From the IMG/VR virus record IMGVR_UViG_3300045988_154803: 48,828 nucleotides of DNA. One strand, 5' to 3'. The position numbers and the translations under genes were made by a program. This DNA comes from a virus (taxonomy: Duplodnaviria > Heunggongvirae > Uroviricota > Caudoviricetes). Below the pieces are notes generated by a model. That model saw only the letters and a program-made list of their open reading frames with translations, was not told where the DNA came from and ran no database searches. Positions 52 to 48,828 of the stretch are shown one piece after another. Each line of letters opens with the position of its first letter. Positions within the stretch are counted from its first letter, which is position 1.

Positions 52-109
52 ATATAATTCTATGACACTTGCCAGAGAGCATCATGCAATTGGATACCTC
101 CATTGCACT
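52..109. repeat. Terminal overlap: identical to 48771-48828 (circular contig closure)
   Basis: Direct comparison of the first post-adapter 58 bases with the last 58 bases of the window. Confidence 0.9.
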
Positions 110-647
110 GGTTGCCCCAGCCATGCCAGCCATCAGGTAAATCACCGCGAGCAAACAGCTCAATACGAGGAACATCACCTAACAGCCTTACCAGCTTGTC
201 ACGGACCACATCAGGCTTCCGAGAATGCTCCAGACGAGGCGATGTAAACGACTGAATGATCCCCGCATCAAGACGTGTCGGTAGTTTGCCTTTCACTGCA
301 AACAAGCAATCTTCACTGTTTGCACGAGTCATATGCCCCATCCCCATCACCAGCTTATCTGGTTGTCGGCTACCACATTTGTTCCATGTGAAGCCCTTCA
401 TGGTCATCAGCCTGAATCCCCATGCTTTCACCACCAGCAACGCTTCTTCTGGCTGAGTCGGAACCCACCACATGGCCAACAAACACGATTCAGGATTAGC
501 AAGCTGCCAGACAGGAATACGAGCAATCTCCTCAGCTTTCATCGTTGGATACTTAAAACCAGCGCCACGATTCCCATCCTTACACTTGTCTTTGTATTCC
601 CAGGGGGGATCTGCATAAATCAGATTAAACAATGCAATTGCCTCCAT
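60..647 (-). CDS. MT-A70 family (Dam-like) N6-adenine DNA methyltransferase
   Basis: 195 aa; catalytic DPPW motif in context LIYADPPWEY typical of MT-A70-type adenine methyltransferases. Confidence 0.65.
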   Translation of the reverse strand: MEAIALFNLIYADPPWEYKDKCKDGNRGAGFKYPTMKAEEIARIPVWQLANPESCLLAMWWVPTQPEEALLVVKAWGFRLMTMKGFTWNKCGSRQPDKLVMGMGHMTRANSEDCLFAVKGKLPTRLDAGIIQSFTSPRLEHSRKPDVVRDKLVRLLGDVPRIELFARGDLPDGWHGWGNQCNGGIQLHDALWQVS

Positions 648-955
648 GTTAGTTGTGCCTCCGGCGCTTATCTCCGGCAGTCATAACGCTGGTCAGCCCT
701 ACAGCAAACACAACGAAAAGGGCACTAACCAGACTGATTAATGCCCTTGCCTGTTGTGTGCCGGATATCGCCCGACAACGCTGTTTTGGTAACACGGCTA
801 CAGTTCCGCGCCGCTCCAGCTTTTACCCCTTTGCGGATAACAGGCCCTGCCTGTAACTTAGCCCCACGTTCGCCCGAAATGCGCACCAGGCACGCATAAA
901 GATGAGCACGAAGGAAGTAACTCCACCGCGCTTATCTTTATGTGTGAGAGTGAAT

Positions 956-1031
956 TGGTGGCCCCTACCGGATTTGAACCGATGACCGTGCGATTATGAG
1001 TCGCCTGCTCTAACCACTGAGCTAAGGGGCC
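956..1031 (-). tRNA. tRNA with CAU anticodon, ileX/ileY-like (probable tRNA-Ile2 reading AUA after lysidine modification; tRNA-Met not excluded)
   Basis: 76-nt cloverleaf read by hand: acceptor GGCCCCU/AGGGGCC, D arm GCUC-AGUGGUU-AGAGC, anticodon loop CUCAUAA, T arm AUCGG-UUCAAAU-CCGGU, 3' CCA; 5' half matches E. coli ileX as recalled. Confidence 0.85.
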
Positions 1032-1041
1032 ATATTTGATC

Positions 1042-1124
1042 TGTTTGTCTGGTGTGGCGCCGCGCACGAAAATCCCAGCCAATAAATTCAGGATTTTTGG
1101 GCGCGGCGGCATATCAGACAAACA
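1042..1124. repeat. Large imperfect inverted repeat (two ~34-bp arms, ~15-nt spacer) between lysis cassette and tRNA
   Basis: Arm tgtttgtctggtgtggcgccgcgcacgaaaatcc vs reverse complement of ggatttttgggcgcggcggcatatcagacaaaca; about 29 of 34 positions pair. Confidence 0.6.
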
Positions 1125-1200
1125 TGGTTGATGCGTGCGCTCATGAGAAAAGCGCATAGAATGTTGTAACTATATATTTATATAATTATAGAAATATATA

Positions 1201-1410
1201 TTACTTGGGGCAGTTGATTTCCCATGCCCTGTTATGAGCCAGAATATCTTTCTTTGTCTGGCGGTCCATAACATCGATATCGTGATCAGTCAGGTAGATG
1301 GGCTTTACCCAATCACAGGCGGTATCAACCACCACCGGGACGCTTCCACGACTCCCGCAGCTCGCGATCAACATCGTCATCAGCCATATGGTTAACACTC
1401 TGCTGTACAT
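1201..1410 (-). CDS. o-spanin (Rz1-like outer-membrane lipoprotein); true start probably internal (MTMLIASCG)
   Basis: Lipobox LIASC followed by short Pro-rich periplasmic segment; overlaps 3' end of the i-spanin in another frame. Confidence 0.55.
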   Translation of the reverse strand: MYSRVLTIWLMTMLIASCGSRGSVPVVVDTACDWVKPIYLTDHDIDVMDRQTKKDILAHNRAWEINCPK

Positions 1411-1603
1411 TCCCCACCTCTTTTGTCACTTCTATACGCCGCTCCGCAGTGGCTTTTACGGCGGCTGCATTCTCATTAATGCGCTGCTTTTCAGCTTCAT
1501 CTTCGGCCTTTTCTCGCCCCTTCATACGACCAAAACCAAATGCGCCGAATGCAACCAATATAATGGTGCCGATAAATGACAAAACGGCTTTCAAACCAGT
1601 CAT
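1325..1603 (-). CDS. i-spanin (Rz-like, N-terminal TM helix plus charged coiled-coil segment)
   Basis: 92 aa; hydrophobic N-terminus IGTIILVAFGAFGF then K/E-rich helix; directly downstream of endolysin. Confidence 0.5.
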   Translation of the reverse strand: MTGLKAVLSFIGTIILVAFGAFGFGRMKGREKAEDEAEKQRINENAAAVKATAERRIEVTKEVGNVQQSVNHMADDDVDRELRESWKRPGGG

Positions 1604-2142
1604 ACCACCACTCGCTCTTTCATCCAGCCATAGACAAACGACTCATTTGCTTCGCGTTTCTCCGCCAGGTCCAGATAACGGTCGCCCTGCGTACAGTTAA
1701 GGGCCGTCAGCATTACCCGTTCGCCGTCTTTTCCCCGATTCCCAAGATAAGCACGTAATGCCGCAATGGTGCGCGGGCCGATTCGCCCATCCACATCCAT
1801 ATCTGGATACAACTTCCCGCCACGGTTGAAAACATTCAGCCAACGTTGAAGCATCTTCGTAGCCACAGTCGGCCCCATGTTGACGCCCGTATCGCACATC
1901 TCAGCCGCAATATCAGGGGAAAATTGCGCCACCTGGTCAAAACGAGGCCCATACCAATAATCACCTTCAAGAATCATCAGAGCCTGTTCTCGCGTCAGAT
2001 CTCGCATATCGCCACGGTATCCGTGAGCACGGGCAGTATTCTGAGTGATGCCCCACATTGTTGGGCCTCCCTTGTCGTCAGGGTGATCAACATAACCGCC
2101 CTCTTTTCCAAGAATGCTGTTAAAAATCTCATCTTTGGTCAT
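1600..2142 (-). CDS. Endolysin, GH108-type muramidase with C-terminal peptidoglycan-binding domain
   Basis: N-terminal GGYVDHPDDKGGPTMWGIT signature of GH108; C-terminal region resembles PG_binding_3. Confidence 0.85.
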   Translation of the reverse strand: MTKDEIFNSILGKEGGYVDHPDDKGGPTMWGITQNTARAHGYRGDMRDLTREQALMILEGDYWYGPRFDQVAQFSPDIAAEMCDTGVNMGPTVATKMLQRWLNVFNRGGKLYPDMDVDGRIGPRTIAALRAYLGNRGKDGERVMLTALNCTQGDRYLDLAEKREANESFVYGWMKERVVV

Positions 2143-2461
2143 GATTAAATCCTAATGCGTCAACTATCCGCGCCAGATTGCCCCTGAAATACAGAACAAC
2201 GATGCAGATAATCAGATTTCCAATAACCACCAGCCAGTGGGATTCTTGATAAAGACCGAACACATAACGGAAGGGAACATTGGCGTATACAATGACGTAG
2301 ATATAAGCCAGAAAGGAAACAAATGGACGATGCCTGGAGTCTTTCCGTCGATAAAGCATCAGCGCCATTACTATTACTGTGCAAAGCACCGCATTAATCA
2401 GTGCTGACGGGTCACTGCTTACCATTTGAACCCCCTCCACGTAAGCGGGAAAGCATTCCAA
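2129..2461 (-). CDS. Lysis-associated membrane protein (holin/antiholin candidate)
   Basis: 110 aa, multiple hydrophobic helices; located between holin candidate and endolysin. Confidence 0.4.
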   Translation of the reverse strand: MECFPAYVEGVQMVSSDPSALINAVLCTVIVMALMLYRRKDSRHRPFVSFLAYIYVIVYANVPFRYVFGLYQESHWLVVIGNLIICIVVLYFRGNLARIVDALGFNHDQR

Positions 2462-2807
2462 AGATGCTACCGAGATCCTGGCTGTTTACGAACGTGAGGA
2501 TTTTAATGGTCAATGCAGCCACAATAACCGCACCAAGCGCATCCAGAGGACGATCGTTGTAGCTGGTCCATTTGGCAAGAAATGAGCCAACTAACGGCGC
2601 TCCAATCACTCCAACAATGAACGATGTAAAGAAATAGCCAATCAGCTTGAGACGGCTAATATTCACCGCTGTAGCAACATAGAAAACAGCGCCAGCAAAT
2701 GCCCCGAATACAACGCCGTAATCAATACCAGTTGCAATACCAAAAACGCTGGCACCCATCAGGCCACCAGCAGCAACGGCCGTACCGGAAATTGGTTCTG
2801 CTGACAT
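2412..2807 (-). CDS. Putative holin
   Basis: 131 aa, Gly/Ala-rich predicted TM helices, first gene of lysis cassette. Confidence 0.5.
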   Translation of the reverse strand: MSAEPISGTAVAAGGLMGASVFGIATGIDYGVVFGAFAGAVFYVATAVNISRLKLIGYFFTSFIVGVIGAPLVGSFLAKWTSYNDRPLDALGAVIVAALTIKILTFVNSQDLGSIFGMLSRLRGGGSNGKQ

Positions 2808-2819
2808 TGAAATCCTCGT

Positions 2820-2852
2820 TAAAAAAAAAGCCCCGCCGAAAAAGGCAGGGCT
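2820..2852 (-). terminator. Intrinsic terminator (hairpin plus U9 on minus strand) immediately upstream of holin RBS
   Basis: Minus-strand reading gccctgcc-ttttt-cggcggggc followed by nine T; only ~13 nt before holin start. Confidence 0.65.
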
Positions 2853-3193
2853 TCATAAAGCAACAAATTACGCGGTAATCGCTTAACGCAGTTTTACTAC
2901 GTTAAATGAAACACTACACCCAGTTACCATCTAAAACAAGGTTTTCTCATAAAAAAACCTTCAAATCGTGGTTAATCGATCAATAAAAAAACAATACTCA
3001 ACTTTTTGCCAAACGAACATCCCGGCCAGGACTTCCATAATATTCGCCGATATGCCACTGCTTAAGTTGAGTAATCTTCTCCAACTTAACTCCCATAGAG
3101 TCCAGTTTCTGCCATGTTTTCGGTTGTATGTGCTTCATTATCCGCTCTGAATATCTGAATACTGCTCGTAATCGCATGGCTTCTCACTACAGC

Positions 3194-3637
3194 TTATATA
3201 TGTTCACGACTGGACTTCCAGAATATCCACGCCAGATCAACATTCGGGTCCTGGTAATTCATCCCTTCGTTGGCACGAAGCAATAATGTTTCATGGTCTT
3301 TATCACCCGCATGAAACCTGACAAGTGCTTCGAACTTTTCGCGACCATCATCCGGCACTACCGGCTCTGGTTGGATAGTGACGTTGGCAAAGGCAGCACG
3401 CAAACCGGCCTTAATTTCCTCTACTTCATCAGCGCCTAGCGATGAATCTGACAATGCGTGATGGAATGCGTAAGCCATGTCGTCGTTTACTGCAACCGGC
3501 TCGACTTCCAGCGCTGCCAGAGCAATTCGTGCCAGTTCTTCCGCTTCTTCTGCTGGCAGTACAACGTTGCTACTAGGTCCGTATGTTTCGCGCCACTGCT
3601 TGATTGTCAGTAGTCGCTCTTTGGTAATAGTAATCAT
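3194..3637 (-). CDS. Hypothetical acidic protein
   Basis: 147-aa ORF in early operon; no motif recognised. Confidence 0.45.
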   Translation of the reverse strand: MITITKERLLTIKQWRETYGPSSNVVLPAEEAEELARIALAALEVEPVAVNDDMAYAFHHALSDSSLGADEVEEIKAGLRAAFANVTIQPEPVVPDDGREKFEALVRFHAGDKDHETLLLRANEGMNYQDPNVDLAWIFWKSSREHI

Positions 3638-4227
3638 GCCGCGTTTCCTTCTTTCTTATTAACAATTACACCGTCATATATTTCATTAAGGTGCCCTCTC
3701 AACTCCATGCGCCTTAATGCAGATAACATGTAATCGCATTCAACCTGCTTATTTCCAGTAAATGGCTTATCGTCAGGATTACCCCAACAGCAATTTCCCT
3801 TGGGCCACCCATGTACTTTCCGTACTCTTCCGTTAACAACGTGAAGTAATCCCCAGCCGGGAGGTAAATCCTCAACTGAAATAATTCCCGGCTCACTAAT
3901 AAAGAATCGCCAGTCGCCCATGCCAAGTGAGGGATTTTTACGGAAACGCTTTTTGCTATCTGCCAACAAGTCAGCACGAGAACACTTTGCCTCTATCAGG
4001 CATGATGCTGAATTTCTGAATCCCATAGCATCTGGCTGTTCTCCGGTACTGGTTACAGCTATAAAGCGGTCATGAAAGCAAACCTTGAACCCGTTGCGCT
4101 TAAGGAACTTGTACGCAATCTGACAGAGTTCGCGGTGTGTTAACGCCATCTCACTCTCCTTTAGTGCGCAGATAACAGTGGTTTTTCCAGCGGTTTTGCG
4201 CCGCGCTGGGCTTTTTGCAAAAACCAC
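3634..4227 (-). CDS. Hypothetical protein, possible PD-(D/E)XK nuclease-like
   Basis: 197 aa; PDAMGF ... LIEAK arrangement resembles PD-(D/E)xK core; several Cys near C-terminus. Confidence 0.35.
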   Translation of the reverse strand: MVFAKSPARRKTAGKTTVICALKESEMALTHRELCQIAYKFLKRNGFKVCFHDRFIAVTSTGEQPDAMGFRNSASCLIEAKCSRADLLADSKKRFRKNPSLGMGDWRFFISEPGIISVEDLPPGWGLLHVVNGRVRKVHGWPKGNCCWGNPDDKPFTGNKQVECDYMLSALRRMELRGHLNEIYDGVIVNKKEGNAA

Positions 4228-4331
4228 AATCCATCATCCCGTAATGTTTCATTAACCCCATCCGTCGGTTGCTGAGTCTCACCCACTGCCAGACGCCAGG
4301 AGCGTTTCTACGAACTAACAGAATCTTTGCT

Positions 4332-4619
4332 TTACGGTTTTTCATCGTTTGCCCCCTGCTTTTCTGCCCTTAACACCATGCGAGAACCATCATCCAGCTC
4401 CCAATTGATTTCACCGCCTTCTGCCATGACAAGATGCCAAACGAGTTGTGCGGCCTCGTTGGTTACATCACGACCGCGATCATTGCCTACACGGCGTTTT
4501 GTTCCGTCACCTAAATCGCGCATTTTGGCCAACACGATGGTTTTTGATAGCGGTGAAAAACCAAGCTGTAGCCGTGCGGAATTACTCACTGTTTGCCCCC
4601 TGAATACGTTTAAACTCAA
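4332..4619 (-). CDS. Hypothetical protein
   Basis: 95-aa ORF, codirectional in operon. Confidence 0.3.
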   Translation of the reverse strand: MSLNVFRGQTVSNSARLQLGFSPLSKTIVLAKMRDLGDGTKRRVGNDRGRDVTNEAAQLVWHLVMAEGGEINWELDDGSRMVLRAEKQGANDEKP

Positions 4620-5274
4620 TTACCCATACCCACGGGTTAGATAGCCAGTTCTCTTGCCCGTAAATACCGCGCCAGATATCACCAAAACCAACACGATAAA
4701 CAGCTTCCGGCGGCGTAATCTTGTACGTTGCCGGAGATGCGCCTTCCGCTTTGGCATCTGCCTCGCTCATGTCATGCAGCCGCTCCACACGCACGTCGGT
4801 AATTTCCAGCAAAATTCGCGATGCCCATCTCGGCATGTGAATTGACGGGGTCCAGCCCTCAGATGGCTTGCTACTATCTGAGTAATCAGCCTTGTAATCA
4901 CACAGTTCAGAAGCCAGAGAGACACCATCTTTGATTTCCTGAATAACATCGTCATCCAGCCAAAAAGCGTTGAATGTCTCACGTACCCATATGCGATCAC
5001 CAACGTTACCGAACGGGCATAAGCCATGCTCAGGTGCATCCATAACGTGGGTATAGACACCATTGCGTTTCTTTGTCGGTTTACTGATAACCAGGCAGTT
5101 ATCGGCCCTGACATTTTTTACAGGTCGACGAGTCTGCGTCTTCCTGCCTTCGAGGATGGCTCGGACCATCTCATCATTAAAAATCATGCCGCGCTCTTTC
5201 ACCTTGCTCACTTCAACTCCTCCCGACGACGTTCCTGAAGCTCTAGCATTGCAGCTCGGAAATCCTGCCACCAT
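4582..5274 (-). CDS. Hypothetical phage protein (possible ASCH/PUA-like fold); start probably internal at MIFNDEM
   Basis: Motif MIFNDEMVRAILEGRKTQTRR recalled from ASCH-like phage proteins. Confidence 0.45.
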   Translation of the reverse strand: MVAGFPSCNARASGTSSGGVEVSKVKERGMIFNDEMVRAILEGRKTQTRRPVKNVRADNCLVISKPTKKRNGVYTHVMDAPEHGLCPFGNVGDRIWVRETFNAFWLDDDVIQEIKDGVSLASELCDYKADYSDSSKPSEGWTPSIHMPRWASRILLEITDVRVERLHDMSEADAKAEGASPATYKITPPEAVYRVGFGDIWRGIYGQENWLSNPWVWVIEFKRIQGANSE

Positions 5275-5573
5275 TCCTCATCTGCAACGGGGGTGTTTCG
5301 CTCCAGCACCTTGTCCGCATCAGCGATCAGGTTTGCCAGACTATTGTCTGAAATCTTCGTTACCGGAGTCGTTGGTTGCTCAACCTGCCCGATAGGTTTT
5401 ATCGTGCTCAAAAGGAGGCGACGGCGGGAAAGTGGTGCCCCACAACGACGGCCATCTTCCTTGCGATATGTTTCTTTCGGACCAACACACCAGGTTGTCG
5501 GCGTTTCACGCAACTTCACTCTTTTCTCACCATCATTGGTAATGATTATTCCGGTATGGGTTTTGATGCTCAT
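5208..5573 (-). CDS. Hypothetical protein
   Basis: 121-aa ORF; overlaps neighbour in a different frame. Confidence 0.35.
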   Translation of the reverse strand: MSIKTHTGIIITNDGEKRVKLRETPTTWCVGPKETYRKEDGRRCGAPLSRRRLLLSTIKPIGQVEQPTTPVTKISDNSLANLIADADKVLERNTPVADEEWWQDFRAAMLELQERRREELK

Positions 5574-5872
5574 GCCACAGCCCCTCTCAACGGCTTAACT
5601 TTGGCTAATAAGGTGTTAAACAACATGGAGTTAGGATTCATGCCAAATGGCAATTCCGGTTTAGCGGAGTAGTACAGGCAACCATTTATTTTCCTGGTTG
5701 TTATCTGTCCTTCGGCAACCATGCTTCTCAGTCTGCAACGCATAGAGTTCTGCGACACACCAATGTGCTCCGCGATTACGTCCACTTTTGAACATGGGTG
5801 ATCGGTCAGGAAATTAATCACATCTTGGGGGTTAATAATTTTGCGTTTCATTGTCGAGGCGTCCTTATACAT
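5570..5872 (-). CDS. Small winged-helix-like DNA-binding protein (candidate regulator)
   Basis: 100 aa; helix-turn-helix-like VIAEHIGVSQNSMRCRLRSMVAEG; preceded by AT palindrome promoter. Confidence 0.4.
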   Translation of the reverse strand: MYKDASTMKRKIINPQDVINFLTDHPCSKVDVIAEHIGVSQNSMRCRLRSMVAEGQITTRKINGCLYYSAKPELPFGMNPNSMLFNTLLAKVKPLRGAVA

Positions 5873-5897
5873 TTATATAAATATATAATTCTATATA

Positions 5898-5917
5898 CGG
5901 CGGGAGACGTCCCGCCG
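5898..5917 (-). terminator. Hairpin terminator after DUF3560-like gene
   Basis: cggcggga-gacg-tcccgccg perfect 8-bp stem followed by AT-rich palindromic tract. Confidence 0.45.
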
Positions 5918-5928
5918 TAGGCTTACTG

Positions 5929-6996
5929 TCAGGCTTTCAATAGCGATTCTTTTAGATATCGGGCATCAGCCAGGGCGTTTGGAGTAATCTTGCGAACCCA
6001 TGCATTACGGGTTGGACTCCACTTAAAGGCGCGTGATTTAAGCAGCGAACGAATGTTTGCCTCTGGTTTGCCAGGGAAATAAAACAGGATGCGGTTATCC
6101 TCTGGATCTATCTCCATAGAAAAGCCGTCGTATTCTTCGCGCTGTGCTCCTGTTACAGACTTGACCGATTCAAGCTCCTTAATACGGCTCTGTAGTCGTT
6201 TGATTTCGGCGTTATTGTTGCTCAGTGCGTATGAAGGGAATCCGATGCGCCCACAGAAATCTCCGGCCAGTAACTCTTTGGCTTCGCTTTCTGTAAACCT
6301 GAGATCGATTAATGCAGAAAGCTGCTGTAATTGGTCTTTTTTGTATTTGCGAATGGCCTTATTTGCGGCCTTCATTTTGACGTGTGACTTCATGCAGCCT
6401 TGCAGCTTACGAAGCAACTTAAATAGCGCATCAGGATCATCAGACGAAATTCCATTACGACCAACACCTGCGGCTTTGCTCTCGTAGTGTGATGCTTTAC
6501 TTTCGCATTCAACAAACGCTTTTCTTAATAACGCATCAGCTTTAGACAAACGGCGGCGATGGCCTTTCGCGCTATAATGGTCAACTAAAATCGGCTGGCC
6601 TAACGGGATCACATCCAACAGGTCATGCGCTCGCTTATGCGCTACCGCACCTTCTTTTCTGGCTTTTTCTGCACGAGCAATATATCGGGCAAGACGCGCG
6701 TTCTGGCGTTCCTGATAGGTGTTTACGTAATCATCTCCGCGCTGCTGCTGTTCAAGCCATGCTTTGCGCAGATCTTCTGTTACGTCCACCAGCTCCGCAG
6801 GGATACAACCAGTTTGGGCTTCATAAGAGTAACCATCCTCATAGATGCGCCCATCGTCTTCAACAAAGAAAAAGGTTTCGTGCTCATCGCTTTTGACCAT
6901 ACGACCATTAACATGGCGTAATAGGTAGCCAGTATCAGTGCTTAACAGGCTGTTAGGGTTGTTGATCCAGTCAGAAATAATTTCTTGTTTATTCAT
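5929..6996 (-). CDS. DUF3560-like protein (unknown function; family seen on plasmids)
   Basis: 355 aa; motif GQPILVDHYSAKGHRRR recalled from DUF3560; first gene after leader cassette A. Confidence 0.5.
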   Translation of the reverse strand: MNKQEIISDWINNPNSLLSTDTGYLLRHVNGRMVKSDEHETFFFVEDDGRIYEDGYSYEAQTGCIPAELVDVTEDLRKAWLEQQQRGDDYVNTYQERQNARLARYIARAEKARKEGAVAHKRAHDLLDVIPLGQPILVDHYSAKGHRRRLSKADALLRKAFVECESKASHYESKAAGVGRNGISSDDPDALFKLLRKLQGCMKSHVKMKAANKAIRKYKKDQLQQLSALIDLRFTESEAKELLAGDFCGRIGFPSYALSNNNAEIKRLQSRIKELESVKSVTGAQREEYDGFSMEIDPEDNRILFYFPGKPEANIRSLLKSRAFKWSPTRNAWVRKITPNALADARYLKESLLKA

Positions 6997-7112
6997 CAGA
7001 TTTCTCCGGTTTAACCAGGGCGGGTATCGCTCGGTTTCGGGTATAACCTTAGGAAATTTTTTCCCACCTGTAAAGCGCTTTTTATATAAATCTATAATTA
7101 TATATTTATAGA
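6997..7112 (-). promoter_or_regulatory. Conserved promoter/5' leader cassette, copy A
   Basis: Near-identical to 16461-16580 and 48667-48785; ends at the start codon with GGAG RBS; contains TATAATTATA palindrome. Confidence 0.6.
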
Positions 7113-7165
7113 TTTTCGATGTTACCGATGTCTACACACCATCAAAACAGCTCAAAATGACACTT

Positions 7166-7543
7166 TTACTCTCTTCGCTTTTTCAAATAGTCGACAACAT
7201 ACGCCCTGGCTTTTGCCAGCTTCCGGCGATACTGTCTGAGACTAAGAGAAAGGGCGTGGGCTTTATCAATATGCGGTGCATTTATGTCGAGGCCCCGAAT
7301 CTCCCACGCCCCGTATTCAATTCGGACAACCAGCGCCGCAGTCTCATCAACTACCGTGAGGGCCGTCACCGCTCCCTCGATACTGGTTTCCAGTGAGTCA
7401 TTTGGTGCGCCGCCCCCTCCGGTAAACTGGCAGCGCGTAACCATCATCATTTCTAACATCGACGCGAAACCGCTACGGGCGTTGCAGCCATTGCGCACCC
7501 ACAGCGCCCATAGCTCAAACAAGCTATCCAGATCGCGTCTCAC
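7166..7543 (-). CDS. Possible Q-like antiterminator (Phage_antitermQ-like)
   Basis: 125 aa; N-terminal LFELWALWV resembles LERWGAWA start of small Q-family proteins (recalled); sits immediately upstream of leader cassette A. Confidence 0.4.
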   Translation of the reverse strand: MRRDLDSLFELWALWVRNGCNARSGFASMLEMMMVTRCQFTGGGGAPNDSLETSIEGAVTALTVVDETAALVVRIEYGAWEIRGLDINAPHIDKAHALSLSLRQYRRKLAKARAYVVDYLKKRRE

Positions 7544-7546
7544 TGT

Positions 7547-7879
7547 TCAGATCTCCCGTATCGTGACGGGATAAAGCGCCTCTACCTGCTTTTTCTTCAT
7601 GATGTAGACGTCTGTTCGCACACCTTTAGTGTCGACACAATCAATCGTCCCATCGTCATAAAACACCATGAAATCAAGTTTATAAACGACACCACCTGGC
7701 AGATGAAAAGGCACCTGCATAAGAAACGTCACAACGCGGCCAGCTTTTCTCAGTAGCTTCAGTTCGCAGTAGTAATCAGCCTCTTTTTTGCTATCAAAAG
7801 AGATATCATCGACAACAGTTTTTTTATTGCCGTATTTGCTTTTCCTGGTCGCTGGTTTGCGAAAGCCGGTATATCTCAT
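7547..7879 (-). CDS. DUF1064 family protein (PD-(D/E)XK-like)
   Basis: SKYGNKKTVVDDISFDSKKEADYY signature typical of DUF1064. Confidence 0.6.
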   Translation of the reverse strand: MRYTGFRKPATRKSKYGNKKTVVDDISFDSKKEADYYCELKLLRKAGRVVTFLMQVPFHLPGGVVYKLDFMVFYDDGTIDCVDTKGVRTDVYIMKKKQVEALYPVTIREI

Positions 7880-8280
7880 TTGGTATCCCCTGGTACTTCA
7901 CCAAGACTAAGATCAAACCCAATTTCGTCTTTAACTGACTGCGGCAACAGCTCCCACGTCTGCGCACACAAAAATTCATCGGTGCCATAACGCTCAACAA
8001 AGCGAGCACAATTACTCAGGGGAGGGTGACGAACGGCAATATGCGGAGGCACGCGCCCACCACCAGGCACAACACCGCGATGATGTGGTGCGCACAACCC
8101 AAAGCTATGGAAGTGGCAATTCTCATCAACGCTGCCGTAATCAGGATCGTGATGTAGCTCCGTCCACAGCTCTGGATTATCAATTTCACGGCCATCAATA
8201 ATGCAAGCTATGCAACCCACGTGAGTGAGCACCGCTTGTATATAAAGTTTCTCTTTCTTCGTTGGTGTACGTCCGTTCAT
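7876..8280 (-). CDS. Cys/His-rich protein, possible zinc-binding HNH-like nuclease
   Basis: CIACIIDG ... HH ... DENCHFHSFGLCAPHH. Confidence 0.35.
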   Translation of the reverse strand: MNGRTPTKKEKLYIQAVLTHVGCIACIIDGREIDNPELWTELHHDPDYGSVDENCHFHSFGLCAPHHRGVVPGGGRVPPHIAVRHPPLSNCARFVERYGTDEFLCAQTWELLPQSVKDEIGFDLSLGEVPGDTK

Positions 8281-8513
8281 CAGCGCCCCTTACCATTGAT
8301 AAAGAGGTTGAACTCGTTGATTAACTGGACATACATGCTTCTGGCCGCGTAGTTCTTTGCCAGCTCTTTACGGGATGAGATCCCGCAAAACTCACGCAGA
8401 ATCACAGAGGCCTCAGAACTGTTTGAAACGTTCTTCCCTGTTTTACTGGTCAGAAAGCGCCAGAATTGGGGATTCTGGCAATGCATCGCAGCACCGCGAA
8501 CATAACTACTCAT
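8280..8513 (-). CDS. Hypothetical protein
   Basis: 77-aa ORF with start/stop overlap to neighbours. Confidence 0.35.
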   Translation of the reverse strand: MSSYVRGAAMHCQNPQFWRFLTSKTGKNVSNSSEASVILREFCGISSRKELAKNYAARSMYVQLINEFNLFINGKGR

Positions 8514-9025
8514 TGATGGCCCCCGTCATTTCTGGTGCTTTTCACCGTGCGGCTTCTTAAAAACCTGCCATCACGAACAACAGACACTTCTCGTTTACCC
8601 AACCTCATTTCACGGCGGTAACATTCAGAAAATGCCTCGTCCGGCATCATATAAATGCGACGCTTCGCCTCCGTATCCAGAAGGGAACGGCTTGGGGTTA
8701 CATATAAAAACGACTCATCAATAGGGACAAAACCACGAGCAAGAATTGCTGGCAGAATGCCAGGAAGAACGCAGAAAACAGCTCCACGATGCAGCAACAT
8801 CTGGTACTCCATGACCTCCGTTATCCCCGTGACTACTGTTACGGTGTCACGTCTGTTACGGCTGGCAACCAGTCGCTGCACACGTCCAATTTTCTGATCT
8901 ACAGATAGATGTTTGCTATCGTTATCAATATGATCGATAACAAACCCTTTAATCGTTTGATCAAGGTAGTGCACCACCTTCGATTGAATCTGGTGATTAT
9001 CACCAAAGAAGGCCAGAATCATCAT
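8510..9025 (-). CDS. Hypothetical early protein
   Basis: 171-aa ORF, operon position downstream of cro-like gene. Confidence 0.4.
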   Translation of the reverse strand: MMILAFFGDNHQIQSKVVHYLDQTIKGFVIDHIDNDSKHLSVDQKIGRVQRLVASRNRRDTVTVVTGITEVMEYQMLLHRGAVFCVLPGILPAILARGFVPIDESFLYVTPSRSLLDTEAKRRIYMMPDEAFSECYRREMRLGKREVSVVRDGRFLRSRTVKSTRNDGGHQ

Positions 9026-9516
9026 TCCTCAAGCCTCCCAAGTGCTGAACGCCGGGCGTTGCTAATCTCCTTATGAATCAGCTCGATATCGCTGGAATCT
9101 TTATTCTTAAACTCCAGCATGGCAATCGCATCACGAACCTCTGAAACGGTTACGTGTGAGTGTTTCCAGCGAGCAATGAATCGCGGACCGCGTAGATTGC
9201 AACGCTCCGCAGGCATCCCCAGCTCAGAGAAAACCGCTTTCAGCCTTGATAAGCAGTTAACAGGGAGATTCCCTTTGATCTTGTTCTGCCGAACCGATGT
9301 GCCATCGCTACGCTGGCGCTGACGTTCGGCAAAATCTGCCGCCCATTGCTGGACGTTAATCCGGCCTTCCGAATACGCCACCAGCAGCGTCAGGTTATCC
9401 GCACGAGGGAATCTCTCGAAGCGATACCAGGCACCAATCAGTGATGACGTAAAGCCAAACTTTCTGGCAACACCAATTTGGCCTCCATTCTCGTCAACCC
9501 ACTCCTGAAAGGTCAT
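9022..9516 (-). CDS. Cro/YdaS-like HTH regulator (N-terminal domain) with C-terminal extension
   Basis: GGQIGVARKFGFTSSLIGAWYRFERFP resembles YdaS/Cro-type HTH; divergent from CI across operator cluster. Confidence 0.5.
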   Translation of the reverse strand: MTFQEWVDENGGQIGVARKFGFTSSLIGAWYRFERFPRADNLTLLVAYSEGRINVQQWAADFAERQRQRSDGTSVRQNKIKGNLPVNCLSRLKAVFSELGMPAERCNLRGPRFIARWKHSHVTVSEVRDAIAMLEFKNKDSSDIELIHKEISNARRSALGRLEE

Positions 9517-10842: not shown

Positions 10843-10948
10843 ATTATAGATTTATATAATTATATAAAACGCTTTTCATCAGCCAAAAAGTTGGTTATGC
10901 TTACCTCGTTCTATAAATATAGATTTATAGAATTATATAACCAAACAC
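10843..10948. promoter_or_regulatory. parA upstream region with AT palindromes (candidate centromere/operator)
   Basis: Perfect 16-bp palindrome TTATATAATTATATAA at 10843-10858 and a related repeat CTATAAATATAGATTTATAGAATTATATAA. Confidence 0.5.
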
Positions 10949-11629: not shown

Positions 11630-11660
11630 GTTTTATAGATTTATATAAGAGGGGATACAC

Positions 11661-12129: not shown

Positions 12130-12153
12130 ATAAAAAAGCCCCCGAAGGGGCCT
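12130..12153. terminator. Hairpin terminator (U-run on minus strand, A-run on plus)
   Basis: gcccccgaaggggc stem-loop flanked by A6 on plus strand. Confidence 0.5.
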
Positions 12154-12725
12154 AATCGCTACTTGCTGCTAATGTTTATCGTCACATTCAGAGCGTTATC
12201 AGTAATCTTCCAACCCTCCCCATGTGGCGTAAACAAAGCTCCAGTAACAACGATAAAAATACACATACAGTATTTTTTCATTGTATGGCCCTTACAGGCC
12301 GTTTCACGGCATCCCCACCGACGAAAACAACGCGAGAGCAAGCACGGCTGCTTGTGCTTGCATGTACGGCAACGGAGAATCCTCCCCTAAAGTCGGTGCC
12401 CGGGTGCGAATCGGCGGGAAGGTCCACAGGTATTTTACGATTATTTTAAGATTAGTAATAGGAAAGAAATTAAACGAAAAAACTCGTTTATTTTCACAAA
12501 ATCAGTAACCTACCCACAATCTGTGAGTTTGCAGGCACAACAAGAACCACAATTTTTTGAAGCATAATAGTGGACTATTATTACCTTTTGGGTAAAATTA
12601 ACTTGCTGCTTGTGCTTGCGTGGTTGTTTATACAACAACGTAATGCTGAAAGGACCGCGAATCCGATCAGCACGAAAGAACCGTCCTCAATAGGGCGGTT
12701 TTTTTGTTTCTGCCTACCAATAAAC

Positions 12726-12773: not shown

Positions 12774-12873
12774 TGCGCCATTGGTGGACACTTTCCGAGC
12801 CGTAGCAAAATCTACGGCCGGGATTGGAACCCCGATAATCATCATGGCGCATACCGCGTTAGCGGTTTTTTTA
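12774..12873 (+). ncRNA. Candidate small RNA (~100 nt) ending at intrinsic terminator
   Basis: Candidate promoter TTGTCT-N17-TATTGA; internal hairpin ccgtagcaaaatctacgg; terminator ccgc-gtta-gcgg + T7 at 12854-12872. Confidence 0.3.
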
Positions 12874-13037
12874 TGCGTAAAGCACTGCTACACCCAAATT
12901 ATGGTGGGGCGTGCGGGGGAGTCGTAAGACTCGCCGGATTCCATGGTGACCGGTAGTTCCAACCCTGTACGTCTCACCACCCAATGATTGGAACCAGACG
13001 GTGGTGAGTATCCTTAACCTTTAAGGGAACTATCACC

Positions 13038-13229
13038 ATGACAAACTTACCCCATGACTATTACGTCAACCTCGTAAAGATCCTTCTCAAGAAAGCCTCA
13101 TACGCCGATAAACTCCGCCTGGCTGAAATCATCGAGCGCGAAGCTATGCGCATCGCCAGCAACGATAACGCTGTTTCTGACGCAAAAATCTCCCTCGTAA
13201 CCAAAGTAGTTATGGGAGGTACAAAATGA
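13038..13229 (+). CDS. Small protein upstream of antirepressor
   Basis: 63-aa ORF with stop/start overlap (ATGA) to antirepressor. Confidence 0.4.
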   Translation: MTNLPHDYYVNLVKILLKKASYADKLRLAEIIEREAMRIASNDNAVSDAKISLVTKVVMGGTK

Positions 13230-14368
13230 AAACGCTTCCGACCGTTAACACCCTACAGCCTATCCTGCATAACCAGATCCCCGTTATCACTAGTGAACTT
13301 CTGGCGCAGTTATACGGAACAAAAATCAAAAACATTTCTGATAACTTTCTGAACAACACGACGCGATTCATAGCCGGAAAGCATTACTTTAAAATTGAAA
13401 AAAACGAATTACGCGAGTTCAAGAACAGACCTGAAACAATCGGGTTAGTTGGTAAAAATGCCCGCTCCCTAATTCTCTGGACCGAACACGGAGCAGCCCG
13501 TCACGCCAAAATGCTCGAAACCGATCAGGCTTGGGATGTGTTCGAAAAACTGGAAGACTGCTATTTCAACCAGAACGCACAAACGGCCGCGACCGTAACC
13601 GTCTCACCAAACAATGCTCGTGAGGTTGTCGATACGCTCAACGCCAAACCGATGTTTTACATTAAAGTGTGCAACAACGAGCCACTCACAACCTCAGCCG
13701 ATGTTGCCCAGGCATTCAGCACCACAAACAATTCCATCGTTATGGCCATCGATGCGTTACGCATTCCTCGCACAGCTGCGGCGCGTCATTTCTTTAAAGA
13801 GCAACGACCGTTGGAAGGAAGCGACCGCGAAATAACAATCTATCGCATGACAAAAGACGGATTTACCTTGCTCATGGAAAGTATCGACGGTCCAGGCGTG
13901 AAGGATATCAAGCTGGCCTACATTGAAGCCTTTAACGCTATCAGCAGCGTGTTAAAAACACAGTACGAGCGCGATCTGGCTAAACGACTGTACCAGGAAA
14001 AAACGATTATCCGCGCGGCAACAGAGCATAATCGGCTATTAACGGAACCGAACTACAGGAAGGAACTAATCAAGGAGTTTGACAAGGCAACAGGGAAAAC
14101 CAAAGCGGCGCTAAGTCTGCCAGCAATGACTCAGGAAAATGTGATATCAGCCTTACTTCTTGATCTGCTCAGAAACGCCAGAGCACTTATCAGCTTTGAC
14201 GAAAACCTGAATCCTCAGCTCAAGCTACTACCACCGACAGGCAAAGTAGTCGACCAGGCTGATCACAACAGCATACTCAGCGTACTGGATGCAAACCTGC
14301 CAGCCAGGACACTACAGGATCTGATAAAAACATGTGCTGATAAGCTGGCACAGAAAAGCAGACCATAA
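13226..14368 (+). CDS. ant: Antirepressor-like protein (ORF6N/KilA-N-type N-terminal domain + Rha-like domain)
   Basis: N-terminal IPVITSELLAQLYGTKIKNISDNFLNNTTRFIAGKHYF; central PLTTSADVAQAFSTTNNSIVMAIDAL. Confidence 0.7.
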   Translation: MKTLPTVNTLQPILHNQIPVITSELLAQLYGTKIKNISDNFLNNTTRFIAGKHYFKIEKNELREFKNRPETIGLVGKNARSLILWTEHGAARHAKMLETDQAWDVFEKLEDCYFNQNAQTAATVTVSPNNAREVVDTLNAKPMFYIKVCNNEPLTTSADVAQAFSTTNNSIVMAIDALRIPRTAAARHFFKEQRPLEGSDREITIYRMTKDGFTLLMESIDGPGVKDIKLAYIEAFNAISSVLKTQYERDLAKRLYQEKTIIRAATEHNRLLTEPNYRKELIKEFDKATGKTKAALSLPAMTQENVISALLLDLLRNARALISFDENLNPQLKLLPPTGKVVDQADHNSILSVLDANLPARTLQDLIKTCADKLAQKSRP

Positions 14369-15550: not shown

Positions 15551-15976
15551 ATGAGTTCATCTGCTTTTGTCACCGTGGTCACTGGTGTAAGTGTTTTTGT
15601 TCTAGGCCAACTCATCGTCAAAGGAGCTATTGAGCCTTACATTTCATTCAGGGAACAACTAGGGAAAATATCCAATCTGTTATTATGTAACCAAGCAAAA
15701 ATAGTGAATCCTGGCTCGAACTTAAAGCCAGAAATCATTCATGATCTAAAAGATTCCGCAGCACAGTTAATGGCGAAATATTCCACTTTACCTTTCTATA
15801 TCAAAAAGTTACATATCGGCTTTCGTCTTGTTCCATCAGCCACCGAGATTCTTGGGGCAGCTCAAAATTTGAACTATATAGCGTCAATACATGAAGGTAA
15901 GACTGGGGAGAATCCATCTAAGCATCTCGAAGAGATTGGCCATATGCTCAAAATACCAACTACCTATTCAAGCTAA
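15551..15976 (+). CDS. Membrane-anchored hypothetical protein
   Basis: 141 aa; N-terminal hydrophobic helix AFVTVVTGVSVFVLGQLIV; divergent from HTH regulator. Confidence 0.45.
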   Translation: MSSSAFVTVVTGVSVFVLGQLIVKGAIEPYISFREQLGKISNLLLCNQAKIVNPGSNLKPEIIHDLKDSAAQLMAKYSTLPFYIKKLHIGFRLVPSATEILGAAQNLNYIASIHEGKTGENPSKHLEEIGHMLKIPTTYSS

Positions 15977-16460: not shown

Positions 16461-16580
16461 CGGGTTATCTCCGGTTTAACCAGGGCGGGTATCGCTCGGT
16501 TTCGGGTATAACCTTAGGAATTTTTTTCCCACCTGTAAAGCACTTTTTATATAAATATATAATTATATAATTCTATGAGC
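16461..16580 (-). promoter_or_regulatory. Conserved promoter/5' leader cassette, copy B
   Basis: Near-identical to copies A and C; palindrome TATATAATTATATA at 16556-16569. Confidence 0.6.
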
Positions 16581-19894: not shown

Positions 19895-20449
19895 TCAATG
19901 ATTCCCAGCCGGAAACCTGCGGTAAAGCGTGGATAAGGTAACATCGAAGATAATCGCTATCCGCTTACGTGAAACACCATTCGCAATAAGCCTTCCGATC
20001 TGTTCCCATTGCTCTGGTGCCAATTTTGAGCGGCGTCCTCCTATCCTGCCGTTAGCCCTTGCCACCGCCAATCCTGCACGCGTTCTTTCAATCATATTTT
20101 CCCGCTCCATCTCTGCGACTGCACTCAGCATCGTGTAGGCAAAGCGGCCAATTGAAGTGCTAATTTTTATCCCTTCCGTAATCGAAATAAACTCAATGTT
20201 GTTTGATAAAAAATGGTTAAGTAAATCAACAAGATGAATCAGAGAACGCCCCATTCGGTCCAGCTTCCAGACAATAACCGTATCGCCCGGCCGTAACACC
20301 TTAAGTAGCTTATCAAGTCCTGGTCGTTTTGATTTAGCACCGGATATTTTATCTTCAAAAATCTGGTCACATCCTGAACTCCTGAGCGCCTCCAGTTGTA
20401 ATTCCAAATTCTGGTCAAAAGTTGACACCCTCGCATAACCATATTGCAT
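19895..20449 (-). CDS. Gin/Hin/Cin/Pin-family serine DNA invertase
   Basis: 184 aa; YARVSTFDQ catalytic Ser motif, WKLDRMGRS, C-terminal HTH; alignable along full length to Mu Gin as recalled. Confidence 0.95.
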   Translation of the reverse strand: MQYGYARVSTFDQNLELQLEALRSSGCDQIFEDKISGAKSKRPGLDKLLKVLRPGDTVIVWKLDRMGRSLIHLVDLLNHFLSNNIEFISITEGIKISTSIGRFAYTMLSAVAEMERENMIERTRAGLAVARANGRIGGRRSKLAPEQWEQIGRLIANGVSRKRIAIIFDVTLSTLYRRFPAGNH

Positions 20450-20513
20450 ACTTTCTAAACCGCGATTGTTGCTAAAAGCGGAAAAAAATATCGTTCAGAC
20501 GACACAGAGGCAA

Positions 20514-20539
20514 TTCGCAAAAACCTCGGTTTACAGGAA
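20514..20539. repeat. Left inversion crossover site (gix/hix-like, inverted orientation)
   Basis: Reverse complement reads TTCCTGTAAACCGAGGTTTTTGCGAA; inverted repeat of right site. Confidence 0.8.
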
Positions 20540-20563
20540 ACGGTAAACCGAGCCGGGAACGCC

Positions 20564-21400
20564 GTGCAAAAAAATGGCGATACCTTGTCCGGTGGACTTA
20601 CTTTTGAAAACGACTCAATCCTTGCCTGGATTCGAAATACTGACTGGGCAAAGATTGGATTTAAAAATGATGCCGACAGCGATACTGATTCATATATGTG
20701 GTTTGAAACAGGTGACAACGGCAATGAATATTTCAAATGGAGAAGCCGCCAGAGTACCACAACAAAAGACCTGATGACGCTGAAATGGGATGCACTAAAT
20801 ATTCTTGTTAATGCCGTCATTAATGGCTGTCTTGGAGTTGGTACGACGAATGCACTAGGTGGTAGCTCTATTGTCCTTGGTGATAATGATACCGGATTTA
20901 AACAGAATGGAGACGGTATTCTTGATGTTTATGCTAACAGTCAGCGTGTATTCCGTTTTCAGAATGGAGTGGCTATTGCTTTTAAAAATATTCAGGTAGG
21001 GGATAGTAAAAAGTTCTCGCTATCCAGCTCTAACACATCCACGAAGAATATTACCTTTAATTTATGGGGTGCTTCCAACCGTCCAGTGGTTGCAGAGTTA
21101 GGCGATGAGTCCGGATGGCATTTCTATAGCCAGCGAAATACAGATAACTCGGTAATATTTGCTGTTAATGGTCAGATGCAACCCAGCAACTGGGGGAATT
21201 TTGATTCCCGCTATGTGAAAGATGTTCGCCTGGGTACGCGAGTTGTTCAATTGATGGCGCGAGGTGGTCGTTATGAAAAAGCCGGACACACGATTACCGG
21301 ATTAAGAATCATTGGTGAAGTAGATGGCGATGATGAAGCCATCTTCAGGCCGATACAAAAGTACATCAATGGCACATGGTATAACGTTGCGCAGGTGTAA
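20564..21400 (+). CDS. Alternative tail-fibre C-terminal variable domain (promoterless; fused to constant N-terminus after inversion)
   Basis: Frame open from crossover site; C-terminus ...RPIQKYINGTWYNVAQV parallels expressed fibre C-terminus ...RPIQYCINGTWYNAGSI. Confidence 0.75.
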   Translation: MQKNGDTLSGGLTFENDSILAWIRNTDWAKIGFKNDADSDTDSYMWFETGDNGNEYFKWRSRQSTTTKDLMTLKWDALNILVNAVINGCLGVGTTNALGGSSIVLGDNDTGFKQNGDGILDVYANSQRVFRFQNGVAIAFKNIQVGDSKKFSLSSSNTSTKNITFNLWGASNRPVVAELGDESGWHFYSQRNTDNSVIFAVNGQMQPSNWGNFDSRYVKDVRLGTRVVQLMARGGRYEKAGHTITGLRIIGEVDGDDEAIFRPIQKYINGTWYNVAQV

Positions 21401-21403
21401 GTT

Positions 21404-21931
21404 ATGCAGCATTTAAAGAACATTAAGTCAGGTAATCCAAAAACAAAAGAACAATATCAGCTAACAAAGAATTTTGATGTTATCTGGTTATGGTCCGAAG
21501 ACGGTAAAAACTGGTATGAGGAAGTAAATAACTTTCAGGACGACACCATAAAGATTGTATACGACGAAAATAATATTATTGCCGCCATCACCAAAGATGC
21601 CTCCACGCTTAACCCTGAAGGTTTTAGCGTTGTCGAGGTTCCTGATATTACCGCCAACCGACGTGCTGATGACTCAGGTAAATGGATGTTTAAGGATGGT
21701 GCTGTGATTAAGCGGATTTATACGGCTGACGAACAGCAACAACAGGCCGAATCACAAAAGGCCGCGTTGATTTCCGAAGCTGAATCAGTCATCCAGCCGC
21801 TGGAACGCGCTGTCAGGCTGAATATGGCAACAGACGAGGAACGCACACGACTGGAAGCATGGGAACGCTACAGCGTTCTGGTCAGCCGTGTGGATACGGC
21901 AAATCCTGAATGGCCACAAAAGCCTGAATAA
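21404..21931 (+). CDS. Tail fibre assembly chaperone (alternative orientation)
   Basis: Paralog of 21960-22493 product ([22 protein letters not shown] vs [22 protein letters not shown]). Confidence 0.75.
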
Positions 21932-21959
21932 AAATTAAGGCCCGATAGCGGGCCTTGTT

Positions 21960-22493
21960 TCATTCTGGTTGTTCTGGAAACGTTACTGGCAGGCTGGAGG
22001 TGTCTGTGGATTCGACCTTCTGCGCATAGAGCATCCACTCGGTTAATTTTTGTTTATTCTCGTTGGAAATGATACCCAGCCGTAGCTGTGAGTCCCATAG
22101 CTGGGTTTTATCCCTGACGAGCTGTAGCAGGCTTTGCTTTTCATTTTCCGCTTGTTGCCTCTGCTCTTCCTCGGTATAAGTTCGCTTTATCACTACGCCA
22201 TCTTTGAACAACCATTTCCCCGAAATATCAGCCCGGCGATTTGCTGTAATATCAGGTAATTCAACGACGCTTGCGCCTTCCGGATTAATTGCTGAAACAT
22301 CCTTTTCAATACAAATAATAACGCCGTTATGGTCATAGACCATTTTCAAAGTGTCTGGCTGGAAATTCTTTTGTTCCTCATACCAGTTTTTTCCATCATC
22401 TGAATAAAGCCATTTGATGTTAAATTGCTTTGTTAGCTGGTATTGCTCTTTTGTTTTAGGGTTGCCAGCAGTAATGTTTTTTAAGTGCATCAT
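21960..22493 (-). CDS. Tail fibre assembly chaperone (currently expressed orientation)
   Basis: Immediately downstream of tail fibre gene; Tfa-like sequence. Confidence 0.8.
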   Translation of the reverse strand: MMHLKNITAGNPKTKEQYQLTKQFNIKWLYSDDGKNWYEEQKNFQPDTLKMVYDHNGVIICIEKDVSAINPEGASVVELPDITANRRADISGKWLFKDGVVIKRTYTEEEQRQQAENEKQSLLQLVRDKTQLWDSQLRLGIISNENKQKLTEWMLYAQKVESTDTSSLPVTFPEQPE

Positions 22494-22495
22494 CG

Positions 22496-46766: not shown

Positions 46767-46788
46767 AAAACCACCCGCAGGTGGTTTT
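46767..46788. terminator. Bidirectional intrinsic terminator
   Basis: aaaccacc-cgca-ggtggttt with T-runs on both strands. Confidence 0.6.
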
Positions 46789-46816
46789 ATAAATAAATAG
46801 CAAACAGGTATCTGCA

Positions 46817-48666: not shown

Positions 48667-48785
48667 CGGGTTATCTCCGGTTTAACCAGGGCGGGTATCG
48701 CTCGGTTCCGGGTATAACCTTAGGAAATTTTTTCCCACCTGTAAAGTACTTTTTATATAAATATATAATTATATAATTCTATGAC
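48667..48785 (-). promoter_or_regulatory. Conserved promoter/5' leader cassette, copy C
   Basis: Near-identical to copies A and B; palindrome TATATAATTATATA at 48762-48775. Confidence 0.6.
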
Positions 48786-48828
48786 ACTTGCCAGAGAGCA
48801 TCATGCAATTGGATACCTCCATTGCACT
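48771..48828. repeat. Terminal overlap identical to 52-109
   Basis: Direct comparison. Confidence 0.9.

Follow-up and report, generated by a model that had tools for sequence, protein, structure and literature searches.

The locus at 956-1031 raises the question of whether the tRNA with a CAU anticodon encoded there reads AUA, as a tRNA-Ile2, or AUG, as a tRNA-Met, and of what it contributes to the phage genome that carries it. The comparisons set out below lead us to regard it, with a probability of roughly 0.85, as a tRNA-Ile2 gene of the ileX/ileY type that looks functional and supplies an AUA decoder to its carrier, a temperate myovirus kept as a 48-kb plasmid.

A single tRNA gene in the window

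In the window, by which we mean the whole stretch of 48,828 bases analysed, ARAGORN predicted one tRNA only, with the anticodon CAT, on the minus strand, and the Rfam model RF00005 matched at the same place (959-1031, minus strand; score, 67 bits; gathering score, 29; E = 1.6e-12). The preliminary description of this DNA, made from the letters alone, had put a tRNA with a CAU anticodon at 956-1031 and had proposed running tRNA predictors as a check; its coordinates proved exact, ARAGORN and Rfam agreed on the tRNA, so that predictors do fold it, and only the strand had to be added. The RNA, GGCCCCUUAGCUCAGUGGUUAGAGCAGGCGACUCAUAAUCGCACGGUCAUCGGUUCAAAUCCGGUAGGGGCCACCA, is 76 nt long, and its 3' CCA is encoded.

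956..1031, minus strand: tRNA-Ile2 gene, anticodon CAU, 76 nt (ARAGORN, Rfam, alignments with ileX and P1 trnI)

Folded thermodynamically on its own, the tRNA formed the acceptor and T arms and not the full cloverleaf. Because such an incomplete fold is usual for unmodified tRNA sequences, we relied on the covariance model and on counts of base pairs. Across 15 distinct Ile2 variants, drawn from the host, P1, a Stx phage, other plasmids and IMG/VR, 95.9% of the cells of the cloverleaf were standard pairs and six pairs changed on both sides, while unpaired cells occurred at 27:43 only.

The carrier of the gene

Positions 52-3000 of the window matched circular E. coli plasmids of 47-52 kb at 96-99% identity (67 records at a coverage of at least 80%) and Yersinia phage vB_YpM_39 at 99.8% identity. 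Almost all proteins of plasmid pP136-7 (65/66) could be mapped onto the window, most of them at 96-100% identity; the mapped set comprised RepA, ParA, a RelE/ParE toxin-antitoxin pair, a serine-recombinase-type invertase, and a complete myovirus head, tail, and baseplate module. From the RepA, ParA, and virion gene content, the plasmid matches, and a P1-type immunity RNA, we take the window to be a complete circular phage-plasmid genome. Bases 52-110 recurred at 48770-48828, where the circular assembly overlaps itself, and the first 51 bases are foreign to it; open reading frames running into them are artefacts.

1-51: Illumina Nextera read-1 / mosaic end adapter, AGATCTACAC + index CTATTAAG + TCGTCGGCAGCGTCAGATGTGTATAAGAGACAG, an artefact and not biology
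12132-12427, minus strand: ryfA (Rfam, 138 bits, above the gathering score)
12799-12872, plus strand: isrK (Rfam, 72 bits, above the gathering score)
12897-12984, plus strand: C4 antisense RNA (Rfam, 84 bits, above the gathering score)

The region with C4, isrK, and ryfA is an immI module of the P1/P7 type on a non-P1 backbone. The three RNAs occupy a gap free of coding sequences just upstream of a small open reading frame and an ORF6N/Ant-like gene (13038-14368), which form an icd/ant-like pair.

Elsewhere in the window, an invertible tail-fibre segment (19895-24814) adjoins the gene for a 184-aa serine recombinase (19895-20449) and is oriented opposite to its counterpart in pP136-7. Alternative tail-fibre C-termini are present there, and two tail-fibre assembly genes face each other at 21404-21931 (plus strand) and 21960-22493 (minus strand). 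Two open reading frames, at 3634-4227 (minus strand, 197 aa) and 15551-15976 (plus strand, 141 aa), are missing from pP136-7, which is collinear in other respects; these are small accessory-gene differences between members of the family.

We also considered the tRNA gene as an attP site or a remnant of integration and rejected this: the gene is full length, its relatives lie on free circular plasmids of 47-49 kb, and pP136-7 has no annotated integrase, its sole annotated recombinase being the 184-aa "recombinase family protein" by the invertible tail-fibre segment.

Isoleucine or methionine identity

Judged by its anticodon, CAT, the gene could instead be an extra elongator (or initiator) tRNA-Met reading AUG. 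ARAGORN labelled it tRNA-Met, and so do the GenBank records of the Yersinia phages vB_YpM_39, 41, and 44 (OR545053.1, OR545054.1, OR545055.1); moreover, unmodified tRNA-Ile2 accepts methionine (PMC9976931). We therefore compared the body of the molecule with that of known CAU tRNAs by aligning it with the annotated records of ileX (E. coli strain AML001_ev02), ileY, metT, metU, and metZ (K-12 MG1655). It was 89.5% identical to ileX (68/76), compared with 74% to metT (57/77) and 61% to metZ (47/77).

The dominant determinants of E. coli TilS are C4-G69 and C5-G68, while U4-A69 and A5-U68 of tRNA-Met act as negative determinants for this enzyme (PMC2500205, PMC12514573, PMC11947777). The window tRNA has C4-G69 and C5-G68, whereas the elongator metT has U4-A69 and A5-U68 in the alignment, and both 4:69 and 5:68 were C-G in 15/15 Ile2 variants. 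TmcA, the enzyme that acetylates tRNA-Met, requires C27-G43 plus either C30-G40 or G44 (PMC2500205). None of these elongator features is present in the window tRNA, which has G27/A43, G30-C40, and C44 and is devoid of U4-A69 and A5-U68. In the 15 Ile2 variants the pair 27:43 was never of the Watson-Crick type (it was G.U, G/A, A/C, or A/G), in contrast to the C27-G43 of tRNA-Met, a critical TmcA determinant.

The bacterial IleRS set consists of A73, C4-G69, U12-A23, C29-G41, A35, U36, A37, A38, and bases of the D loop (PMC9976931, Table 1). The window tRNA carries this set in full, together with a D loop of the ileX type, and the region concerned is identical to that of ileX. An initiator tRNA-fMet is recognized by a C1xA72 mismatch, three consecutive G-C pairs at 29-31:39-41, and A11-U24; the window tRNA has G1-C72, the anticodon stem GGCGA/UCGCA, and C11-G24 instead.

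In RefSeq the 100%-identical gene is labelled tRNA-Ile, both in E. coli plasmid records such as NZ_CP080230.1 and, among the matches listed, in 15/15 near-identical plasmids. The RefSeq annotation pipeline uses tRNAscan-SE. Where the anticodon is CAT, an Ile2-specific model is the most plausible origin of a tRNA-Ile label (PMC8450103), while the tRNA-Met label given by ARAGORN and the GenBank phage records is an anticodon-only reading. With the identity pairs, the alignments, and the RefSeq label all pointing away from tRNA-Met, we find the latter assignment scarcely credible. The tRNA-Ile2 reading put forward in the preliminary description thus holds on the strength of the TilS pairs, the IleRS set, the identity to ileX, and the RefSeq label; the finding that its author had named as fatal, a confident classification as tRNA-Met, was not obtained, since the ARAGORN label reads the anticodon alone.

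Differences from ileX

Positions 1-42 of the window tRNA (the 5' strand of the acceptor, the D arm, and the anticodon stem-loop up to 42) and positions 66-76 are exactly those of ileX, and the eight differences, given here from ileX to the window tRNA, all fall within 43-65: U43A, U44C, G49A, C50U, U51C, G59A, A63G, and C65U. The affected pairs of the T stem stay paired, G49-C65 becoming A-U, U51-A63 becoming C-G, and C50-G64 becoming U.G. The single structural change is at the last base of the anticodon stem, where G27.U43 of ileX is replaced by a G27/A43 mismatch. It had been stated earlier that the acceptor, D, and anticodon arms match ileX while the T arm and the variable loop differ; the alignment bears this out everywhere except at position 43, which belongs to the anticodon stem and differs as well. 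Set against the reported TilS and IleRS determinants, the differences avoid all of them and leave the cloverleaf intact, and their position fits long-term purifying selection on a phage tRNA lineage common to P1 trnI.

The departure of the T arm and the variable loop from the host copy could also be taken as favoring a different main role, namely, the replacement of host tRNA-Ile2 depleted or cleaved in infection (by host shut-off or an anticodon nuclease) rather than codon matching. That phage tRNAs replace cleaved or depleted host tRNAs is an established idea. However, the anticodon stem-loop (28-42) is identical to that of ileX and so bears no mark of having evaded a nuclease that cuts the anticodon loop, and we know of no nuclease that targets tRNA-Ile2, which makes such a role highly improbable here. 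The more specific proposal that the gene is an escape variant against an anticodon nuclease found no support, the anticodon stem-loop being the host's.

Surroundings of the tRNA gene

On the minus strand the tRNA gene stands between a lysis cassette and a methyltransferase gene, in the following order.

2854-2827, minus strand: strong terminator-like hairpin with a T9 tail, 11 pairs, 7 of them G-C (terminator scan, sequence)
2807-2412, minus strand: holin (open reading frames, pP136-7 RefSeq annotation)
2425-2129, minus strand: holin (open reading frames, pP136-7 RefSeq annotation)
2145-1600, minus strand: GH108 endolysin (open reading frames, pP136-7 RefSeq annotation)
1603-1325, minus strand: Rz (open reading frames; Rz-like spanin label from phage mEp390)
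1410-1201, minus strand: embedded Rz1 (open reading frames, pP136-7 annotation)
1171..1200: cluster of an AT-rich palindromic motif, including TATAAT, between the Rz1 stop and the next hairpin
1036..1125, minus strand: long imperfect hairpin with a stem of ~35 bp, preceded by a small hairpin (fold)
748-718, minus strand: intrinsic-terminator-like hairpin with a 14-pair stem and a T-rich tail (terminator scan)
647-60, minus strand: MT-A70 methyltransferase

Over the lysis cassette (1201..2807) pP136-7 is 99% identical to the window, and its proteins map there at 100% identity. The remark in the preliminary description that the tRNA lies just downstream of the lysis genes was correct: two holin genes, the endolysin gene, and Rz/Rz1 are followed by the tRNA on the same strand. 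The hairpin at 2827-2854 precedes the start codon of the first holin by 20 nt, a position like that of lambdoid tR', and by this analogy it may be an antitermination-controlled entry to a unit made up of the lysis genes and the tRNA.

The long hairpin at 1036-1125 ends 9 nt before the 5' end of the tRNA and has no U-tract. Folding of the minus strand over 940-1215 gave a minimum free energy of -86.6 kcal/mol (z = -5.6). No Rfam family was found above threshold for the hairpin, and the E-value mode returned sub-threshold generic long hairpins (miRNA precursor families). In 10 relatives it was unchanged save for one substitution in one partial contig, and it yielded no covariation information. 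We suggest that it could be a leader or processing element or could stabilise the lysis mRNA at its 3' end.

A promoter scan of the minus strand over 600-3200 found no consensus sigma-70 promoter, and a terminator scan found no convincing intrinsic terminator between the lysis genes and the tRNA. By eye, two weak promoter candidates could be discerned: TTGTCT-17-AAAAAT, which falls within the long hairpin, and the TATAAT of the AT-rich motif, which is paired with a -35 hexamer of 3/6. The terminator-like hairpin at 718-748 lies ~210 nt downstream of the tRNA, before the methyltransferase gene. Since the lysis unit is upstream on the same strand, with no intrinsic terminator found in between and a terminator-like hairpin after the tRNA, the latter is probably made in lytic growth. 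Read-through would place it at the end of the lysis transcription unit, with release by RNase P/E; another route would be a weak promoter within the AT-rich motif, which lies 140-170 nt upstream of the tRNA.

The AT-rich motif is not confined to this locus. With up to 2 mismatches, TTATATAAATATATA had 27 matches in the window against 0.16 expected, all but one of them intergenic and grouped in 8-9 intergenic sites.

1171-1200, 5866-5888, 7082-7113, 10845-10867, 10909-10940, 11634-11648, 16547-16570, 48753-48776: sites of the TTATATAAATATATA-type motif, with a weak one at 46785-46799

The sites at 7082, 16547, and 48753 continue into a common block of ~50 nt containing TTTACA-17 nt-TAAGGT, which looks like a promoter. 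Two of the clusters precede parA, and the tRNA has a single copy ahead of it. Taken together, the dispersed sites resemble a set of operators for a regulator that acts across the element.

Such surroundings admit a further view, that the tRNA serves also as RNA punctuation of the lysis operon: the 5' cut by RNase P would set the 3' end of the holin-endolysin-spanin mRNA, the long hairpin would protect that end from exonucleases, and the AT-rich motif would tie the unit to the element-wide regulator. We think this unlikely.

AUA codon usage of the element

Codons were counted in 68 mapped coding sequences, with the embedded Rz1 left out, and 48 core coding sequences of E. coli K-12, counted in the same way, served as a control.

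Whole window: 211 AUA in 13,799 codons (15.3/1000); share of Ile codons, 0.24; A-ending four-fold share, 0.33; GC3, 0.41
Virion genes: AUA, 18.9/1000; share of Ile codons, 0.29; A-ending four-fold share, 0.34; GC3, 0.34
Early-like operon (3194-9516): AUA, 7.9/1000; share of Ile codons, 0.15; A-ending four-fold share, 0.30; GC3, 0.49
Lysis genes: AUA, 8.0/1000; share of Ile codons, 0.13; A-ending four-fold share, 0.27; GC3, 0.48
E. coli K-12, 48 core coding sequences: AUA, 2.7/1000; share of Ile codons, 0.046; A-ending four-fold share, 0.185

The E. coli genome-wide frequency of AUA is 4.9 per 1000 codons (PMC12514573), and that in the window was about 3-fold higher. The count of AUA in late versus early genes, proposed together with the tRNA-Ile2 reading, gave the difference between virion genes and early-like operon listed above, and the virion genes differed from the rest of the element with a Fisher p of 4e-4. 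Relative to the A-ending share, AUA was avoided ~4-fold in E. coli and ~2-fold in the early-like operon, and hardly at all in the virion genes. The latter also contained all the tandem AUA-AUA pairs (5/5), with sites in the genes for baseplate J, the gpD-like protein, tail protein I, and the tail fibre. The baseplate J gene alone had 18 AUA in 374 codons, and those for the gpD-like protein and the tape measure are AUA-rich as well. AUA was the most numerous rare codon in the element, and therefore the tRNA matches a real demand.

The demand was unevenly placed. The major capsid gene had no AUA in its 347 codons, and the tail tube protein gene had one. No virion protein is more abundant than the major capsid, so that the most heavily translated genes do not depend on the tRNA. 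Neither is the enrichment specific to AUA: AGA (9.5/1000 vs. 1.2), AGG (6.2 vs. 0.8), CGA, and CUA were enriched 3- to 8-fold, and the element carries no tRNA for them. Most of the AUA excess in the virion genes follows the low GC3 of their module. This module (20564-43234) had a GC3 of 0.34, compared with about 0.48 in the early, maintenance, and lysis genes, a contrast that suggests a mosaic origin.

These counts speak for a reading of the tRNA as a neutral passenger, an intact gene picked up from a host or another phage and without a measurable benefit. The AUA enrichment largely tracks the low GC3 of the virion module, other rare codons are at least as enriched with no tRNA carried for them, the major capsid gene does without AUA, and the relatives, at 95-99%, are too alike for selection to be seen inside the family. 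The distribution and variation of the gene, described in the next section, argue against such a passenger.

Spread of the variant tRNA

The closest relative of the window tRNA is trnI of phage P1, and the homology between the window and P1 is exactly 1031-956, with nothing beyond it and with unrelated flanks. An exact-pattern scan found the variant arm in at least 120 IMG/VR viral contigs, most of them of the P1 type, 9 window-like, and several intermediate; of 121 viral or genomic loci with this arm, 112 share the tRNA alone with the window. The intermediate variants differ at 6:67 (C-G or U.G), 50:64 (C-G or U.G), 26, and 59, all of which are structure-neutral positions. To look for a donor, we scanned 185,579 species-representative genomes with an exact pattern of the variant arm, from the variable loop through the T arm to the 3' strand of the acceptor; no chromosomal source was found, the one exact match being a P1-like contig. 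Window-type copies, at an identity of 99% or higher, occurred in 52 records, which amounts to about 1% of complete E. coli genomes, and P1-type copies were present in several hundred records (489 in the 90-95% identity band).

This distribution shows that the lineage of P1 trnI moves between unrelated backbones as a bare 76-nt cassette. The gene had earlier been judged a distinct phage-carried variant and not a host fragment, and its full length, its compensated stems, and the occurrence of its arm in P1 trnI and the IMG/VR contigs support this. The same data weigh against a neutral passenger: one variant lineage is intact in unrelated backbones (P1-like and the window family) with homology stopping at the gene borders, variation within it is nearly all structure-preserving (6:67 as C-G, U.G, or U-A; 50:64 as C-G or U.G; and the unpaired 26 and 59), and its differences from ileX all avoid known identity elements. 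We consequently rate a passenger without benefit as distinctly unlikely. Less probably, in our view, the A43/C44/T-arm variant could be a phage-specific adaptation (for example, through altered handling by host modification or decay enzymes) and not the product of neutral drift.

Proposed function

The most likely function of the gene is the supply of an AUA decoder during lytic growth. The primary transcript would carry the anticodon CAU, and host TilS would recognize C4-G69, C5-G68, and the anticodon loop and convert C34 to lysidine. The lysidinylated tRNA would then be a substrate of IleRS rather than MetRS and would read AUA rather than AUG, so adding to the scarce host pool of tRNA-Ile2, for which the host has two genes, during translation of the AT-rich, AUA-rich virion genes. 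Lysidine formation, charging, the timing and route of expression, and a fitness benefit are what we infer here from sequence. The G27/A43 mismatch, in place of G27.U43 in ileX, could weigh against the proposed function; P1 trnI carries the same mismatch.

Beyond annotation, where the GenBank records of the three Yersinia phages mislabel the gene as tRNA-Met, the importance of the finding is small. With it, the temperate phage-plasmid families known to carry an AUA decoder gain a member, one that uses AUA at ~3 times the genome-wide rate of its host, and a confirmed benefit would make it a further example of rare-codon supply by temperate phages and not a new principle. Two points retain a mild interest, namely, the hairpin and the operator-like motif ahead of the tRNA gene, and the spread of the variant as a cassette.

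Comparison with known tRNA-Ile2 genes

Phage-borne tRNA-Ile2 genes have long been annotated, in the P1 record, VT2-Sakai, and other Stx phages, and the exact sequence found here is already a tRNA-Ile in RefSeq; in this respect the gene is already known. Its host counterparts, ileX and ileY of E. coli, have the same length and D loop, and ileX is identical to it over 1-42 and 66-76, including all the reported TilS and IleRS determinants. The host genes are chromosomal, whereas the window tRNA is on a mobile element and differs by the 8 substitutions, with three T-stem pairs exchanged and G59 replaced by A.

The likeness to P1 trnI (NC_005856.1, 70933-71008) is closer, at 72/76 identical positions (94.7%), and the P1 reference record itself describes trnI as "tRNA-ile2 (CAT) gene; 89 pct identical to ileX." Both tRNAs have the derived A43 and C44, the T stem A49-U65 / Y50-G64 / C51-G63, the G27/A43 mismatch, C4-G69, C5-G68, and an encoded CCA. 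They differ at four positions, 6, 26, 50, and 59, the third of these giving C50-G64 in P1 and U50.G64 in the window. P1 is likewise a phage kept as a plasmid, and the window shares with it the C4 antisense immunity RNA. The settings are different: trnI belongs to the C1-controlled ban operon together with trnA (Asn) and trnT (Thr), whereas the window tRNA stands alone, after the lysis cassette.

The third known case is ileZ of the Stx phages (933W; the ileZ-argN-argO cluster of VT2-Sakai), also a phage-borne tRNA-Ile2 with a CAU anticodon in a late region, thought to supply decoders of rare codons, and likewise with a 27:43 pair that is not Watson-Crick (A/C). It is 84% identical to the window tRNA, and its T stem, GCUGG/CCAGC, is of the host ileX/ileY type and not the variant stem. 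Whereas ileZ is followed by two tRNA-Arg genes, has its own annotated promoter, and comes after the late promoter and ahead of both stx and the lysis genes, the tRNA described here has no other tRNA beside it in the window and is positioned downstream of lysis.
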